Notes under the pieces: generated by a model
What the model was told of the DNA's origin: nothing
Database searches by the model: none
Seen by the model: the letters and a program-made list of their open reading frames with translations, nothing else
DNA from: a virus
DNA: 64,000 nucleotides
Virus record (IMG/VR): IMGVR_UViG_3300027741_000002
Coordinates: 65,507 to 129,506 of that record
Reading direction: 5' to 3' (one strand)
Position numbers and translations under genes: made by a program
Part shown: positions 1-5,334 of the stretch, piece after piece
Numbering within the stretch: position 1 is the stretch's first letter
Layout: every line of letters begins with the position of its first letter

Positions 1-1541
1 GCGCCACCACGGCCGTCTGTTCCAGGCTCAGGGATCCACCCAGATGCATGCCCGGCGATATATTTACCGTCTCCAGTTAAATACGCAAGAACTGGATAAG
101 TTCCACCGTCGCGCAATGGAAGTTCACGAGAGTAGTGTGTGTCGTTATTTGGATCACGTACCCAGCCGTCAGGAACTACATTTCCGTTAAGATCTTTATT
201 TCCAAGTGGTTGAGGCGCAGGCTTGCCTGCGTCAATTGCCTTGTTCTCCTGCATGCGCTGTTCTTGCATCTTAAGGATGTCTTGTGGGTTAATAACGTCC
301 TTAGCTGTAGCGCCAGGAATTTTACCAAGAGGAAGTTGACCTTCTGTGGCTTTTGCTTCTTGGCCAGCAATATACTTATCAAATGATGGTTCGTCCTTAG
401 ACATAGCTGCGTTAGCTTCTGCCCAGCTGCTAACTCGCGCAATAGCTTCTCCGGTTGGACGCCCATTTGCGTCTAGACGTAGTACAGAATGTGGACGCCC
501 GCTGCGGTCAATGACGACAGCGTAGTTATCGTCTGATATATACATCCCATTTTGATAGTGCCAACCGATTGGCGCGTCTTTACGTGTTGCAGTAAGCTCC
601 GCTAGCGTAGGAATATTTTTGTCGAGTTGATCTTTAAACGAAGGTTTCTCTGGAGCCGCATGTCCAGGAATACGTGCCTGGTATACCTGGGCGTTACCAC
701 TTTTAATAACATAAAGCCCTGGTCGAAGTCCAGGAACTCCTGATACTTCGATAAGTCCTGAGTCTGCAACAAGTGACGGGCCTTTAGGCGTATTCTCGAT
801 ACGAGTATCTCCGCCGGCGCCGATATAGTCTCCGCTGCCAACTTGAATTGAGCCGTCAGGCAAACGGAAACGGAAGTTAACACCGCGTCCCATTTCAACC
901 CAGCGGCCCTTCTTGTCACGCCACTGTAGAGCAACGCGTGCGCGACGAGCCGCGGACGAGTTTCCGCTGCTAAACGCTGCAATAATAGGTGAAAGGTTGT
1001 CAAGCTTAAAGTATGACGCAAGAAGAGTCTTGTTTGCATTGAGTCGAGCAAACGCATGTTCACGCTCGATAGACCCTGGCATTGCTCCGTGAGCTGAGGC
1101 AACTAGTGGACGAATAGACTCGTCGATGGAAGTATCAGCTGCAATCCACTGCGCGTTCTTTGCAAGAAATTCCTCGGCAGAAAGCGACGCGTTAAGAGAA
1201 GATAGAGGGTGGCCTGCGACTAGCAAATCTGTGTTACTTGTCTCGCTGGCTGTAAATGTCTTTGTTGCAACACTAAGGAAGCGTGATACCTCCTTGAGGA
1301 CCGCAAAGTTGCGCGCCTCGTCGTCAAGTGTTGATAGATCTGCAAGTGCACGATTCATTACGATAAGCGCGGCGCGCGGAGTTACATGACGCTCCTCGGA
1401 TACCTTAGAGTTTGCATCCTTGACGAGAGATAAGACTTGCTCATGCAAAGAGAAGACAGGTAAAAAGTTACTGTCTTTTTTCTTACGAGCTGCCTTGCGC
1501 TTGAGCATACGCTCAATCTTGTCGTTTAGAGGTGCATCCAT
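1..1541 (-). CDS. Large head-module protein, N-terminal part (appears to continue beyond the window start; absent from the ORF track)
   Basis: My translation from ATG at 1541: MDAPLNDKIERMLKRK...NTDLLVAGHPLSS...ALQWRDKKGRWVEMG. It starts 12 nt after the stop of the upstream gene. An RDxKGRW motif is common in actinophage head-associated proteins. I read about the first 240 codons; continuity to base 1 is assumed. Confidence 0.75.
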   Translation of the reverse strand, partial: MDAPLNDKIERMLKRKAARKKKDSNFLPVFSLHEQVLSLVKDANSKVSEERHVTPRAALIVMNRALADLSTLDDEARNFAVLKEVSRFLSVATKTFTASETSNTDLLVAGHPLSSLNASLSAEEFLAKNAQWIAADTSIDESIRPLVASAHGAMPGSIEREHAFARLNANKTLLASYFKLDNLSPIIAAFSSGNSSAARRARVALQWRDKKGRWVEMGRGVNFRFRLPDGSIQVGSGDYIGAGGDTRIENTPKGPSLVADSGLIEVSGVPGLRPGLYVIKSGNAQVYQARIPGHAAPEKPSFKDQLDKNIPTLAELTATRKDAPIGWHYQNGMYISDDNYAVVIDRSGRPHSVLRLDANGRPTGEAIARVSSWAEANAAMSKDEPSFDKYIAGQEAKATEGQLPLGKIPGATAKDVINPQDILKMQEQRMQENKAIDAGKPAPQPLGNKDLNGNVVPDGWVRDPNNDTHYSRELPLRDGGTYPVLAYLTGDGKYIAGHASGWIPEPGTDGRGG

Positions 1542-1552
1542 CTAGATGATAC

Positions 1553-3607
1553 CTATCCCTTACGCTTCTTTGGGAGTAAATCCGCGTCCTTAGAATCATA
1601 GAGTTTTGTCGCTAGGGTGTATGCTCGCTCAAACGGGATATCCCCGTCTCTTACACCTCGTAGCCACGCACCGCGTAGCGCAGGGATTGCCTCATAACCT
1701 AGAGATGAGTACTCGGCCATCGCATGGATAGCGTGCTCTGGTGAGCCGTATTCATCAGCAGTCTTAAGCGCAATAGATAAAAGTTCGTGCTGCATTATTG
1801 AAGCCTCAGCGCGAGAAGACTTAGGGTGAGCCTTAGGCAATAGATCATTGTCCTGCTTATAGTTTGGATTTGCAGGAGAGCCAGACTTGAGAAGTTTGAG
1901 GAACGCATTAACGCGAGCCATTGCCCAACCATCACGAGTCATACCTGGTCGGTGGCTAGACGAGAACGCGCCTGAACCTCTACGGTAAACTGCCTTTAGC
2001 ATTGGAAGGGTTGCCTTACGCCCAGGCTTCGCACCCTTGTTATGAGTTTCTACTTTAGCGCGAAGGCTTGCTTCAGTTCTTGCAGAGAAAACGATCTTCT
2101 TAGATCCTGCGGCGCTTCCTGGCTTATTTTTCTTTGAGCCGTGAATACGATCTTTCTTTGGAGCTGGGCGTGAGCCTGCAGATGTGATTGGACCTCCGAC
2201 TGCCCACGCGTTACACGTGCGTGTCGCGGCGCACTTAAAATCTAGTGCTTCGCAGTAGCCAAGATCTGCTTGCTTGATAGCTGCATCAGCATCTACTTGA
2301 CTTGAGTCTCCTTGTTCTAGTCCTTGTGCGATGCAGTCGAGCATCTTAGGTGTTTGAACAAAAAAGACACAGTTACCGCAGCGACTAGTCTTTGCCTCTT
2401 CAGGAGTTGTTTTCCACTTGTCTGCTTTTTCCTGCCAAAATTCTTCGTTAGGCTCGTTTGGATTCAACGGGCCATAGCCCACGTTGTCAATTGCGTTTTG
2501 ACGATTCTTTAAGTTAACTTGAATATCCTGAGTCGCGACAGGGCATGCATCACCTTCACCTGCAGCAACGATAACTTCTCCGTCACCGTTATCTGCTCCG
2601 TCAACGTTAACTACACCGTCAGGGATAACAGCAAAGCGGCACTTGCCGTCGTCTTCAATAGTAGGTGCGATAATCTTGCAAACGCCAGGACCGTCATACA
2701 GGACACAGTTGACGCACTTAACACCGATCTCCTTGTACTCGTTTTCAGCCGCAGGAGTGTACCCTGCCCAGATGCCTGTCTCGTCTTCGTTAAACTTTCC
2801 GTACTTGTCCGCGATCTCTAGTAGAGCTGCTGCAAGATCCTGCTCTTCGGCAACGATAACTCCTGCTGCTTGAAGAGCTTCAACCCGCTGCTCTTGAAAA
2901 GAGAAATACATATCCTGCGAGGTATACTGTCCGTACTCGTCTGCAGACAGACATTGATTACACACACAACCGGAGTCACATAGACATGTTCCTCCGTCAC
3001 ATCCTGGACATACACAGCCAGCTGGTCCACAAAGTGGGCAGCCGTCTGCGTCGTCCATAAGCTGCTCAACAACAGGAGTGTCTCCTGCGTCTAAAAGTTC
3101 AGCAGCTTCAGATTTTCCCGGCATACCGGAATCTGTAGGTGTTAAATATGCGCCAATCTGCCAACGCCACTTCTTGTGCATGTCATCACGGTCTGCGAGG
3201 AAGTTGATAACTCCCTGCTCGTTGTATTTAGCAGCAAGATCAAGGGCTTGTCCGATAACTGCAATCATTACATCGTTAGCTGCGTAGAGATCTGCTAGCA
3301 TGGAGAATGGGTCGTCTGTAACGTCCATATCCTGTGTCTGGTTAAGATCAATAAAGTCTTGAAGCTTGTAAGGAGCATCATGACCCATCTTTAGCATAAG
3401 CTCTGCCGTAGGATCGATAGACTCGTAGAGATCCTCGTAGATCTCTTGGAAAAACTCGTGAAACTCTGCAAAGTCGCGTCCCTTTACGTTCCAGTGATGG
3501 CCGTGCGTCTTAAAGTACATAGTTACTACGCTGCCTAGAACTACAGCAATCGAGCTGCTAAGCTCCGATCTGTCGGTATTAGTGTCTATGTTTTGATTTT
3601 CGTACAT
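1553..3607 (-). CDS. Multidomain protein: Dps/ferritin-like domain + metallothionein-like Cys cluster + two HiPIP-like Cys domains + DUF5824-like C-terminal domain
   Basis: Dps signature YFKTHGHHWNVKGRDFAEFHEFF...IDPTAE. Ten Cys in 30 aa. CVNC..C..C and CGNC..C..C..CNAW modules. C-terminal AVYRRGSGAFSSSHRPGMTRDGWAMARVNAFL. Confidence 0.8.
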   Translation of the reverse strand: MYENQNIDTNTDRSELSSSIAVVLGSVVTMYFKTHGHHWNVKGRDFAEFHEFFQEIYEDLYESIDPTAELMLKMGHDAPYKLQDFIDLNQTQDMDVTDDPFSMLADLYAANDVMIAVIGQALDLAAKYNEQGVINFLADRDDMHKKWRWQIGAYLTPTDSGMPGKSEAAELLDAGDTPVVEQLMDDADGCPLCGPAGCVCPGCDGGTCLCDSGCVCNQCLSADEYGQYTSQDMYFSFQEQRVEALQAAGVIVAEEQDLAAALLEIADKYGKFNEDETGIWAGYTPAAENEYKEIGVKCVNCVLYDGPGVCKIIAPTIEDDGKCRFAVIPDGVVNVDGADNGDGEVIVAAGEGDACPVATQDIQVNLKNRQNAIDNVGYGPLNPNEPNEEFWQEKADKWKTTPEEAKTSRCGNCVFFVQTPKMLDCIAQGLEQGDSSQVDADAAIKQADLGYCEALDFKCAATRTCNAWAVGGPITSAGSRPAPKKDRIHGSKKNKPGSAAGSKKIVFSARTEASLRAKVETHNKGAKPGRKATLPMLKAVYRRGSGAFSSSHRPGMTRDGWAMARVNAFLKLLKSGSPANPNYKQDNDLLPKAHPKSSRAEASIMQHELLSIALKTADEYGSPEHAIHAMAEYSSLGYEAIPALRGAWLRGVRDGDIPFERAYTLATKLYDSKDADLLPKKRKG

Positions 3608-3609
3608 TG

Positions 3610-5334
3610 CTACGCTCCTTCTTGTAGAGCCGGTGGTAGTGGTGGTTCAGGTGTTGCAGTTGGAGCAGGGGCAACGGGTGTTGCTTTGTCCAAAATCTGT
3701 TGAATCTCTGGAGGTACTGGCGCGGCAGACTCTGCCTGTTGCGCTTCACGCACAGACTTCATAATCTCTGGAGCGATAGCTCCAATCATGGCCTGGGTAA
3801 GCTCTTGTGAAAGAACGCCCTTCTCTACAAGAAGACGAATTGCAAGTTCATTCGCGTCCGGCGCATCGGTAGCTGCAAATCCGTGAGCGCGACGCCATGC
3901 GTCATAGGAGACTGCCATCTTGTCAAAGCCCATGTCAGCATCTGCCGCGCGGTCGTTACGTGTTGAAACTGCGCTTGGGTCATACCAGATGCATACACGG
4001 GCTACGTCCTCCTCTACGAAGCCTGCAGCAAGGAGCGCAGGTCGTAGGTAGGCAACTGTAAGAGAATCCGCGATAAGAAGCATGAGAGGCTCGATATGCG
4101 CCTTGTACAAGTTATCATCGATAGTCTGGGCGTTAGTGTACTTAACGTTTGCTAAACCGGTAATAATATCCTTAGGCACATCAAGCCCTTGAAGGATACG
4201 GTCAAGTACCTTATCGGAGCGATCTGCAAGTGCAGGGTCAAACGAGCGCTCAAACTTAAACTGCTTAATTTTGTCGCCAAGCTCTGCAGGTCCGCGAATA
4301 ATAAGTGGAACAACCGCTGAAGCCGAGTCCTCGTCACGAATCGGAGTCGTCATCGCATCCATGAGTTGATCTTCAAACTCGTCGGCTGCTTCCTCCGCGG
4401 TCATGCCAGGATTGAGATCATTCTCGTCATCATACGGATAGTCAGGATCTGGAGACGCGGCAACAGAGAGACCGTCTGGGAGATAGAGAGCGCCAGCGTT
4501 TAGACGTGAGCGAGCTGTCGCGCGGAACGTACGGTTGAGCAAAAGTAGCTCTGAGCAAAGATCAAGTAGACCGCGTAATGATGAATCAGCCTCGTCTGAG
4601 TAGCGTGGGTGAGCTCTCCAGATACGAGCAACAAACGCTGTGTTAGGAAGTTTAACTCCGTTTGCGCCGGAGCGTGAAGACTGCGTTCCAATAATGTCGC
4701 GGCGTGGAATAACAACGTATGAATTCTTAGAGTCTAGCTGCAACTCGTCTGTTGAGCGAATATCCCAGGACTCCTTAAGTCCTGAGCCCTTACGCTCGGG
4801 GAATTGAACAAGATAGCACTCGCCACTGACTAATAAGTTAAGAGCTGCATCCTTCAAAAGACCAGCTTGTCCGCCATACGCGGAGCTTAGACGCGCGAGG
4901 GCACGTTCAGCTGCGGCCGCGAGACGTGTATCAACTACCTCGCTGATGTTTACAGAGACAGGGTTCTCTCCGGCGTTATCAATAGCTCCTGCGTATAAAC
5001 GGATACGAGATACTACAGATGAAACAAGATTAAAGGCGTACTTGATCTCTCCGATTGCGTCGTAGTATTCCCATGCCTCGGACTGCCAGTCGCTGGATCC
5101 TCCGGAGCGGCGTTGCTTAAACTTCTCAACTTCGCCCTTGTCGTTAATCTGTAACTGAACTGCGGCGGCTGTAAGAGAGCGAGGAGCAGAGTAAGGAAGT
5201 GCCTGGGCATAGGTCTTGCCGTCAAAAACTACTGTCGCAGGCAGAGTGTTACGAGGCGCCTGTGCGGTGATACGACGAGTACGGGCAGGGTTGCCTTTAG
5301 GCTTCTTACTATTATCCTTAGAGAATAGTCCCAC
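3610..5334 (-). CDS. Portal protein (actinophage type)
   Basis: DWQSEAWEYYDAIGEIKYAFNLVSSVVSRIRLYAG, IWRAHPRYSDEADS, SAVVPLIIRGP; 574 aa; downstream of the terminase in the same orientation. Confidence 0.85.
   Translation of the reverse strand: MGLFSKDNSKKPKGNPARTRRITAQAPRNTLPATVVFDGKTYAQALPYSAPRSLTAAAVQLQINDKGEVEKFKQRRSGGSSDWQSEAWEYYDAIGEIKYAFNLVSSVVSRIRLYAGAIDNAGENPVSVNISEVVDTRLAAAAERALARLSSAYGGQAGLLKDAALNLLVSGECYLVQFPERKGSGLKESWDIRSTDELQLDSKNSYVVIPRRDIIGTQSSRSGANGVKLPNTAFVARIWRAHPRYSDEADSSLRGLLDLCSELLLLNRTFRATARSRLNAGALYLPDGLSVAASPDPDYPYDDENDLNPGMTAEEAADEFEDQLMDAMTTPIRDEDSASAVVPLIIRGPAELGDKIKQFKFERSFDPALADRSDKVLDRILQGLDVPKDIITGLANVKYTNAQTIDDNLYKAHIEPLMLLIADSLTVAYLRPALLAAGFVEEDVARVCIWYDPSAVSTRNDRAADADMGFDKMAVSYDAWRRAHGFAATDAPDANELAIRLLVEKGVLSQELTQAMIGAIAPEIMKSVREAQQAESAAPVPPEIQQILDKATPVAPAPTATPEPPLPPALQEGA

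Follow-up and report, generated by a model that had tools for sequence, protein, structure and literature searches.

A modular Dps-containing polyprotein encoded beside the portal gene of freshwater phages is a candidate metal-handling protein of the capsid interior

What might a mini-ferritin that is fused to a series of cysteine-rich modules be doing among the head genes of a phage? The question is raised by a 684-residue open reading frame (ORF) at 1553..3607, on the minus strand of a 64,000-bp window of DNA from a large, uncultured lake phage; by the window we mean the whole stretch that was analysed, which comprises bases 65507–129506 of a 129,506-bp IMG/VR virus record (IMGVR_UViG_3300027741_000002) that has direct terminal repeats and is rated 100% complete. 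An initial annotation of this DNA had described one ORF, directly after the portal gene and inside the head-assembly module, that joins four parts, and had proposed that its product is an iron- or metal-buffering cargo packaged in the capsid. The reading that we favor, to which we assign a probability of about one-half, is that the 684-amino acid (aa) protein is a head-internal polyprotein that is cut by the prohead protease and that carries an iron- and redox-buffering cargo; in this reading we infer packaging, cleavage and metal binding alike.

The ORF begins 2 nt past the stop codon of the portal ORF (3610..5334) and encodes a Dps domain, a Cys-rich stretch, two modules that we refer to as H1 and H2, a DUF5824-type domain and a small C-terminal helical domain, which bears out the description of one multi-part ORF directly after the portal. 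In a Pfam scan of the 684-aa protein at E values of up to 1, only Ferritin and DUF5824 were matched. The fusion is real and no accident of assembly, since full-length homologs with 92–96% identity occur on other contigs; a frameshift or an assembly fusion as the origin of the ORF was ruled out by these same near-identical proteins. A word-based search returned 876 relatives, with 443 stretches in IMG/VR, and polyproteins of this type are widespread in freshwater phages with genomes of ~130 kb.

The order of genes on the minus strand confirms that the ORF lies within a head-assembly module. In particular, the portal gene is followed by the 684-aa ORF, by genes for proteins of 1912 aa, 197 aa and 1717 aa (the last with a protease domain), by the gene for the major head protein (683 aa) and by tail genes. 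Directly upstream is the portal gene (3610..5334, minus strand; 574 aa; phrog_776, E 8.9e-109), and directly downstream is the start of the gene for the 1912-aa giant head-module protein (3..1541, minus strand), which leaves the window and continues at G000:C1:61309-67047. A survey of what occupies the slot after the portal in related phages, which had been suggested as a check, found that the slot is kept. We examined 78 IMG/VR loci that contain relatives: a portal homolog is the immediate upstream neighbor at all 71 of the loci with enough flank, and the giant protein is encoded directly downstream in 63 of 63. A further 52 loci were reached via H1, of which 47 have the module in the portal slot, 2 have it in a protease polyprotein beside the capsid gene and 3 have it elsewhere. 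Via H2 we reached 79 loci: the module is encoded immediately upstream of the protease protein in 10 and in the portal slot in 12, it forms part of an H1-DUF5824-H2 protein beside non-head genes in 6, and the remaining loci have nothing else in common with this genome. Two of the loci (L091 and L100) have H2 fused to a homolog of the 197-aa protein. PHROG searches at four unrelated H2 loci placed H2 after the portal in one (L159) and after the major head protein and an anti-restriction-type giant protein in another (L122); at a third (L126) they returned no match.

Within this constant slot, the protein itself is far from constant. We mapped modules in 122 proteins, namely the best 120 of the 876 matches, the 684-aa protein and one protein of the Actinomycetia phage DSL-LC01, and found 24 different architecture strings. 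The C-terminal part is present, and last, in all 122. The most frequent order, Dps-Cys-H1-Cterm, occurs in 62 of the proteins and the order of the 684-aa protein in 21; Dps is absent from 21, some of which keep only its first helix and some of which may be truncated gene calls. Single cases have H2 before H1, no Cys-rich stretch, or a ParB-like insert, and many of the mapped proteins carry an extra two-Cys mini-module. In more distant kin, whose portals are ~65–70% identical, the order is DUF5824 core, H1 and last helical domain, sometimes with H2 in front. Because these permuted kin put H1 between the two halves of the C-terminal part, the seemingly constant C terminus consists of two modules, of which only aa 606–684 keeps its place. 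The Dps domain can even be a separate gene, as in L184, where a 157-aa Dps ORF occupies the portal slot; since it is dispensable and can stand alone, Dps is an accessory cargo and not a core head part. H1 in turn is found inside protease polyproteins of 1475 aa and 1655 aa, and in some relatives it is the counterpart of the 1717-aa protease protein that carries the H1 cassette. The 684-aa protein is thus a cassette array whose modules are shuffled, dropped, duplicated or relocated among relatives, with the gene slot kept.

Two further features were noticed in the course of this mapping. The optional mini-module, (S/G/D)PCW(D/E)GY...NCVP, occurs family-wide, for example in P0010, P0038 and L180, and may correspond to Pfam DUF3721. 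The ParB-like insert (DLIPTQ...GHHRC) lies between modules in P0123 (803 aa) and in P0251.

The borders between the modules carry a common motif, hydrophobic-x-Ala-Ala-Gly/Ser/Ala. In the 684-aa protein, LQAAG (aa 245–249; 2861..2875, minus strand) precedes H1 and is a degenerate version of the E-A-[LMI]-x-A-A-G that stands before H1 in the tabulated relatives; IVAAG (aa 346–350; 2558..2572, minus strand), preceded by an acidic run, precedes H2; and ITSAG (aa 474–478; 2174..2188, minus strand) lies between H2 and the tail. Among the tabulated joints, those before H1 follow [LMIV]-x-[AS]-A-G and those before the tail x-A-A-[ASG] or T-[AS]-[AS]-[AG]. When we defined a strict pattern, [ILVM][TVI][AS]A[ASG], 174 of its 175 matches in 121 family proteins fell within windows just before module starts. 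The joint also accompanies H1 in permuted forms of the protein and into the protease polyproteins, where H1 stands behind AITAAG (L141) or IATAG (L150). Moreover, the eight head-module ORFs of this genome hold 9 strict sites, as against 1.4 ± 1.2 in shuffled sequences (0 of 500 shuffles reached 9), whereas the other 148 ORFs hold 13, as against 9.6 ± 3.1 expected (35 of 200 shuffles). Thus, in this genome, the motif is enriched only in head proteins. Its matches outside the 684-aa protein lie at aa 248 of the capsid protein, at aa 54 of the portal, at the end of the protease domain and, twice, before repeated modules of the protease protein. The joints look like protease sites.

The company kept by the C-terminal part points in the same direction. 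This part comprises a basic linker with a DUF5824-type core (aa 479–605; 1793..2173, minus strand), which contains AVYRRGxGA, SHRP, WAMARVNAF and YxQDNDLLP, and a helical subdomain (aa 606–684; 1556..1792, minus strand) that ends in DADLLP and comes last in those permuted relatives whose translations we read. The assignment to DUF5824 made at the outset is upheld by the match of Pfam PF19141 to aa 534–582 (28.4 bits against a cut-off of 25; profile positions 71–119 of 127), and among 105 proteins distantly related to the C-terminal part, 87 match this family as well. Most of the 1424 clusters (formed at 50% identity) that a search with the C-terminal 209 aa returned at E up to 0.001 share the core, aa 477–605, only; Arg, Asp and His residues are invariant across the clusters, which suggests a binding or catalytic site in the core. 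To survey the partners of DUF5824, we ran Pfam on 114 of 150 listed representatives, the 35 shortest having been left out. Ferritin occurs in 20 of these 114, in orders unlike that of the 684-aa protein, and head proteases occur as Peptidase_S78 (in 5), the XkdF-type S78_2 (in 3) and Mu-like_Pro (in 1). Phage_Mu_F was found in 2, DUF3721 in 9 and ParBc_2 in 2; 2H phosphoesterase, PNKP-type HAD and D12 methylase domains are also represented. One distant protein is a portal-DUF3721-DUF5824-MuF fusion, with MuF or portal domains in P0382 and one more, and in Salinibacter phage 5_12 a 934-aa DUF5824 protein is encoded directly upstream of the major head protein. The predicted structure of aa 476–684 is all helical, with a predicted local distance difference test score (pLDDT) of 90.1. 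Foldseek found no match for it in the PDB at E below 1. The highest Z from VIA-align, by which it was compared with 48,161 chains, was 5.8 (for gamma-secretase and sigma-factor region 2), a value within the noise stated by the tool for helical models; in BFVD the only matches were to phage proteins that are either unnamed or multi-domain with the names XkdF, prohead protease, ChaB or DUF5824.

Entry of the 684-aa protein into the procapsid is indicated because the slot is kept, because DUF5824 occurs elsewhere in fusions with portal, MuF and prohead proteases, because H1 and H2 occur in or beside the protease polyprotein, and because the joints resemble protease sites. Taking these observations together, we consider that the protein probably enters the capsid and is cleaved there.

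What would such a protein bring into the capsid? The Dps (mini-ferritin) domain spans aa 8–160 (3128..3586, minus strand). Pfam PF00210 (Ferritin) matches aa 28–156 (E 1.9e-14; 54.2 bits, with the cut-off at 24.5), and a phmmer search aligned aa 8–155 with residues 12–158 of the solved Dps 3iq1 (E 7.6e-14; 8ff9, E 1.8e-13). Because the scores for the NCBIfam Dps equivalog fall far under the cut-offs (38 versus 170), we regard the domain as a member of the family and not as an equivalog. The ferroxidase-type residues that had been pointed out by the initial annotation (HW..FHE..DxxAE) are indeed present, as HHW at 37–39, FHEF at 49–52 and DPTAE at 65–69. In a 34-row alignment, D65 never varies and conservation is 90% or higher at H38, W39, H50 and E69; H38, H50, D65 and E69 are presumably the ferroxidase ligands (two His, one Asp and one Glu). 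When two copies of the domain were predicted together, the dimer score was 0.48, as against 0.00 for the best control, a pass that is probably explained by likeness to solved Dps dimers; of 30 solved pairs, 20 attain the mark used for this score, as does 1 of 23 single chains. Separate runs agreed in at least 97% of contacts, with a pLDDT of at least 87 for the partner, and the interface of the predicted symmetric dimer includes residues 35–40 and 64–69, with residue 39 touching residues 65, 68 and 69 of the other copy. The Dps domain looks functional.

The Dps domain is followed by a linker (aa 161–186, GKSEAAELLDAGDTPVVEQLMDD; 3050..3127, minus strand) and by a stretch with 10 Cys in 30 aa (aa 190–219; 2951..3040, minus strand), the Cys being residues 190, 193, 198, 200, 203, 208, 210, 214, 216 and 219. 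Because the linker has no joint motif, the Cys-rich stretch would remain joined to Dps after cleavage. The initial annotation had called this stretch metallothionein-like. Its count of 10 Cys at 2951–3040 is exact, but since neither a metallothionein nor any other Pfam family matched the stretch at E up to 1, the likeness is one of composition only.

The same annotation had described two HiPIP (high-potential iron–sulfur protein)-like modules, and here the two cases differ. H1 (aa 250–334; 2606..2860, minus strand) is predicted to consist of a helix and a small sheet, and its four Cys (298, 301, 310 and 323) are kept in 66 alignment rows in which the module is present, with one further row having another residue at three of the positions. 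In a HMMER alignment, the spacing C298-x2-C301-x8-C310-x12-C323 is that of the HiPIP PioC. In an AlphaFold model of aa 246–476, H1 has a pLDDT of 64–90, and the five best matches of this model among 48,161 PDB chains are all HiPIPs, with Z scores of only 3.1–3.4 and identities of 24–28%: 1pih (Z 3.4; root-mean-square deviation 2.5 Å over 45 residues), 6xyv (PioC; Z 3.3; 47 of 54 residues), 3h31, 1isu and 1hpi. Three more HiPIP-type chains follow lower down, and the best Foldseek match is also a HiPIP (3h31, E 1.2). No match to the Pfam HiPIP family (PF01355) was found in the 684-aa protein at E up to 1. For H1, therefore, the HiPIP-like description can cautiously be retained, on the strength of the Cys spacing and of fold matches whose scores are weak.

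H2 (aa 351–473; 2189..2557, minus strand) has seven conserved Cys (355, 410, 413, 425, 452, 459 and 465), which are kept in all 60 rows, with nine further rows having K, E or another residue at Cys 425. Its HiPIP-type motif, C410-x2-C413 ... GYC452-x12-C465-N-A-W, contains a 38-aa insert, and two GenBank phage records annotated as "high potential iron-sulfur protein" by their depositors match aa 345–468. A likeness of H2 to HiPIPs is favored only by this motif, by the depositor annotation and by its wide occurrence as a standalone phage protein. When the PDB was searched with an H2 profile, no HiPIP appeared at E up to 10, the best hits being SURP and aldehyde oxidase at E 0.19–1.9, which we take as chance. 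Searches of the ESM Atlas with H2 returned viral hypothetical clusters only, and PHROG gave no match for five genes around the HiPIP-annotated gene of MW202879. Both modules also exist as proteins of their own, H2 in 558 matches as a standalone phage protein of 133–145 aa and H1 in 100 proteins. A common origin of H1 and H2 was considered and dropped, as hhalign gave a probability of 4% over 9 columns; for the same reason, the fact that MAFFT lays H1 rows on H2 columns is no evidence of homology.

These findings can be assembled into the following scheme. The 684-aa protein would be made late, together with the head proteins, and would be taken into the procapsid, where it may be held by its C-terminal part, through DUF5824, the last helical domain or both. 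Cleavage at the joints by the prohead protease would then release predicted pieces of ~27 kDa (Dps plus the Cys-rich stretch), 11 kDa (H1), 14 kDa (H2) and 23 kDa (the tail). The Dps piece would assemble as Dps proteins do and would clear Fe(II) and H2O2 from around the packed DNA; Fe–S clusters or metals may be bound by the Cys modules, which may buffer redox or pass electrons. Bacterioferritin pairs with the small ferredoxin Bfd, and because the combination of a ferritin-type store with Fe–S modules recalls that pair, H1 and H2 might transfer electrons to or from an iron core. We favor action inside the capsid over injection, because a tail channel would not let assembled Dps cages and folded cluster proteins through.

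Several observations count against this scheme. The 684-aa protein has no MuF or portal domain of its own. A standalone H2 gene in the unrelated locus L138 lies between replication genes and the terminase, and proteins of the type H1-DUF5824 core-H2 adjoin non-head genes in L087, L088, L094, L096, L104, L109, L179, L201 and L204, so that the modules are not confined to head operons. The 1912-aa giant protein, a neighbor in the head module, has no strict joint site, and Ala-rich joints could be plain linkers or recombination scars. E. coli Dps binds DNA by a Lys-rich N-terminal tail, and the Dps domain described here has no such tail at its N terminus. The evidence that H1 is a HiPIP suffers from the low Z scores, and a profile built from 46 H1 sequences matched PioC (E 0.5) and 3h31 (E 0.8) in the PDB without significance; the fold of H2 was predicted with a pLDDT of <50. 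An enzyme or ligand binder fits the DUF5824 core better than a mere anchor does, because of its invariant Arg, Asp and His. Lastly, our search of the literature, for which sources were available in part, found no paper on phage HiPIPs, and it found none on DUF5824.

Some of these points would be accommodated if the protein were instead a late auxiliary protein of the cytoplasm that is never packaged, that mops up Fe(II) and H2O2 in the infected cell while heads are assembled and DNA is packaged, and that protects replicating phage DNA or an oxidant-sensitive host, its adjacency to the portal reflecting late co-expression only. Standalone Dps genes of gut and Lactobacillus phages are interpreted in this way in the available part of one report (PMC8008677), Dps is optional among the relatives of the 684-aa protein, and head modules are not the only sites of H1-DUF5824-H2 proteins and standalone H2 genes. 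We nevertheless consider a cytoplasmic role possible but on balance unlikely, given that the slot is strictly kept at all 71 and all 63 informative loci, that H1 and H2 are found inside or beside the prohead-protease polyprotein, that portal, MuF and prohead proteases are among the fusion partners of DUF5824, and that the capsid protein, the protease and the portal of the same genome share the joint motif.

Packaging could also serve delivery, if the protein were a polyvalent effector that is packaged, unfolded, ejected with the DNA and refolded in the host, there to alter host iron or redox or to shield the entering DNA. Such a role would agree with what is said of polyvalent proteins in the available part of the paper that describes them (PMC5512222), namely that their genes adjoin those for portal or MuF proteins and that injection is predicted for them; distant DUF5824 proteins moreover have the polyvalent partners MuF, ParB-like, 2H phosphoesterase and D12 methylase, and the neighboring giant protein has a kinase-like end. 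However, passage through the tail would require Dps cages and cluster modules to unfold and to give up their metal, and the terms Dps, ferritin, HiPIP and iron-sulfur have 0 occurrences each in the available text of that paper, and we regard injection as distinctly unlikely. Very improbable, in our view, is that the protein is structural filler, with the Cys modules being zinc-stabilised mini-domains and Dps an oligomerisation hub, so that the whole would be scaffold or inner-body material with no role in iron or redox chemistry. Neither H2 nor the Cys-rich stretch has a match among families of metal proteins, zinc binding is common among small Cys domains, and the modules are interchangeable, as bulk material would be; against this, a mere hub would have no need of ferroxidase-type residues, whose conservation is 90% or higher, Dps and DUF5824 come together repeatedly in unrelated architectures (20 of 114 proteins), and the Cys spacing and best fold matches of H1 are those of HiPIPs. 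We therefore return to the head-internal, protease-cut polyprotein as our preferred reading. The original proposal of a capsid-packaged iron- or metal-buffering cargo finds partial support: the genomic context points to procapsid entry and the Dps domain looks functional, but this Dps is an accessory cargo with which relatives can dispense.

The neighboring genes offer some further detail. The minus-strand gene at G000:C1:55593-60746 (L004:5594-10747) encodes the 1717-aa protein, whose head maturation protease domain spans roughly aa 1000–1413. The domain is recognized through a match to phrog_18402 at aa 1190–1367; Pfam gave no match, and the PHROG label "head maturation protease" is the only indication of its family. 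The protein contains two repeated modules that start MTAAGG(P/L)D(R/Q)NRGN, and LVAAG stands at the end of its protease domain. In the 683-aa major head protein (G000:C1:53412-55463, L004:3413-5464, minus strand), there is a PHROG capsid match from aa 171, and the site at aa 248, PVTAAA, follows an acidic run; it may mark the border of an N-terminal, scaffold-like part of the capsid protein. Comparison of the capsid protein and the protease region with PDB sequences gave no useful matches, and PVTAAA could not be placed on a fold. The 1912-aa protein has a weak Pfam match of PI3/PI4-kinase-like type at aa 1756–1797 (22.4 bits, under the cut-off). In its N-terminal region there is a stretch, "...TDLL..HP.S", that is like the end of the DUF5824 core and in whose place relatives have NTDLLPLTHPRSTR; from the likeness, this stretch could be a shared tag. 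The non-head genes that adjoin H1-DUF5824 core-H2 proteins elsewhere include homologs of those at G000 99222-99407 and 106198-106859, for example.

The nearest named phage is DSL-LC01, which is metagenome-assembled (129,469 bp, OQ999401) and matches the last 200 residues of the 684-aa protein only, at 64% identity; a megablast search of GenBank phages with the first 12 kb of the window gave no match. In DSL-LC01, the slot after the portal (OQ999401, 6005–8633) holds three ORFs, of 466, 62 and 347 aa, which contain no Dps, H1 or H2 and share only the two-Cys mini-module and the DUF5824 tail; the 466-aa ORF has a RRDRKGRFAEMGGG motif that resembles one in the N-terminal part of the giant protein of the window. 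The authors who described DSL-LC01 predict an actinobacterial host, and the part of their paper that was available (PMC10611076) mentions neither Dps nor ferritin.

Much of the decay of phages in surface waters is caused by sunlight and peroxide, and to our knowledge no virion-borne antioxidant or iron store has been described. In its fullest form, our proposal is that the virions of this abundant group of ~130-kb freshwater phages carry an iron-loading Dps cage with Cys-rich tails together with free HiPIP-type modules, all released by the protease, and that this counterpart of an encapsulin guards the genome against photochemical H2O2 and Fenton damage and makes the virion an iron carrier. 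Although we judge this full form unlikely as it stands, it would, if true, mean that virions guard their packed genome in sunlit water and act as carriers of iron, and would bear on the iron content of phages. The natural presence and absence variants of the modules are ready-made comparisons, and the cleavage code of an uncharacterised prohead protease could be deciphered from the regular joints. This locus also provides a first context for DUF5824 and for H1 and H2, two widespread and unannotated phage modules.

Each element of the proposal can be set beside a known system. Among head proteins trimmed by a prohead protease are the internal proteins of T4, with gp21, and the inner-body proteins of phiKZ, with gp175, and herpesvirus assemblin cuts at sites of the form (V/L/I)-x-A|S. 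The 684-aa protein and its neighbors resemble these in that several head-internal proteins would have one short motif at their module borders, and the hydrophobic-x-A-A-G/S/A motif, from which we predict cleavage, resembles the assemblin site. With the Dps family (PF00210; 3iq1 and 8ff9), the phage domain shares a full-length alignment, the ferroxidase-type residues and a predicted two-fold dimer that places these residues across the interface; it differs in being fused to ~520 further residues, in being encoded in a head operon and in having no Lys-rich N-terminal tail. H1 resembles HiPIPs, and especially the minimal PioC (6xyv), in its C-x2-C-x8-C-x12-C spacing and its top structural matches, but it has no Pfam HiPIP match, low Z scores and an extra N-terminal helix, and H2 is set apart by an insert of 38 aa and three additional conserved Cys. 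Encapsulins have a phage-capsid-type shell with ferritin-superfamily cargo, and the cargo carries a constant C-terminal part. A shell of phage-capsid type and a ferritin-superfamily cargo with a constant C-terminal part recur here, where packaging is predicted; the capsid in this case, unlike an encapsulin, would be filled with DNA, the cargo would be a Dps in place of an encapsulin-type ferritin-like protein, and loading would use the procapsid and protease route.

Phages are known to encode members of the Dps and ferritin families. Standalone auxiliary Dps genes are described for Lactobacillus phages and for the gut "Gratiaviridae" (PMC8008677, in the available part), and particles of phage G were found to contain its ferritin-like gp346, according to the available part of that report (bioRxiv 10.1101/2024.12.16.628780); unlike the 684-aa protein, these are single-domain proteins that are not described as lying in a head operon and that have no Fe–S-like partners. 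The "Ferrojan Horse" idea, as set out in the available part of its source (10.1101/674382), concerns iron in phage tails. Nearest in overall design are the polyvalent proteins that were described in phages and conjugative elements by Iyer, Burroughs, Anand, de Souza and Aravind (2017; PMC5512222), with which, to judge from the available part of that paper, the protein shares a multi-domain make-up, variable architectures, the portal/MuF neighborhood in phages with portal-terminase packaging, and predicted entry into the virion, and to which it is also linked by the distant DUF5824 proteins with MuF, portal, ParB-like, 2H and methylase domains. It differs from them in having no MuF or portal domain, in its Dps, Cys-rich, HiPIP-like and DUF5824 cassettes, which the available text does not name, and in its regular Ala-Ala joints, which that text does not describe. 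What is new, in comparison with these systems, is a variation on the theme of the polyvalent, head-internal polyprotein, namely one with putative metal-handling cassettes.

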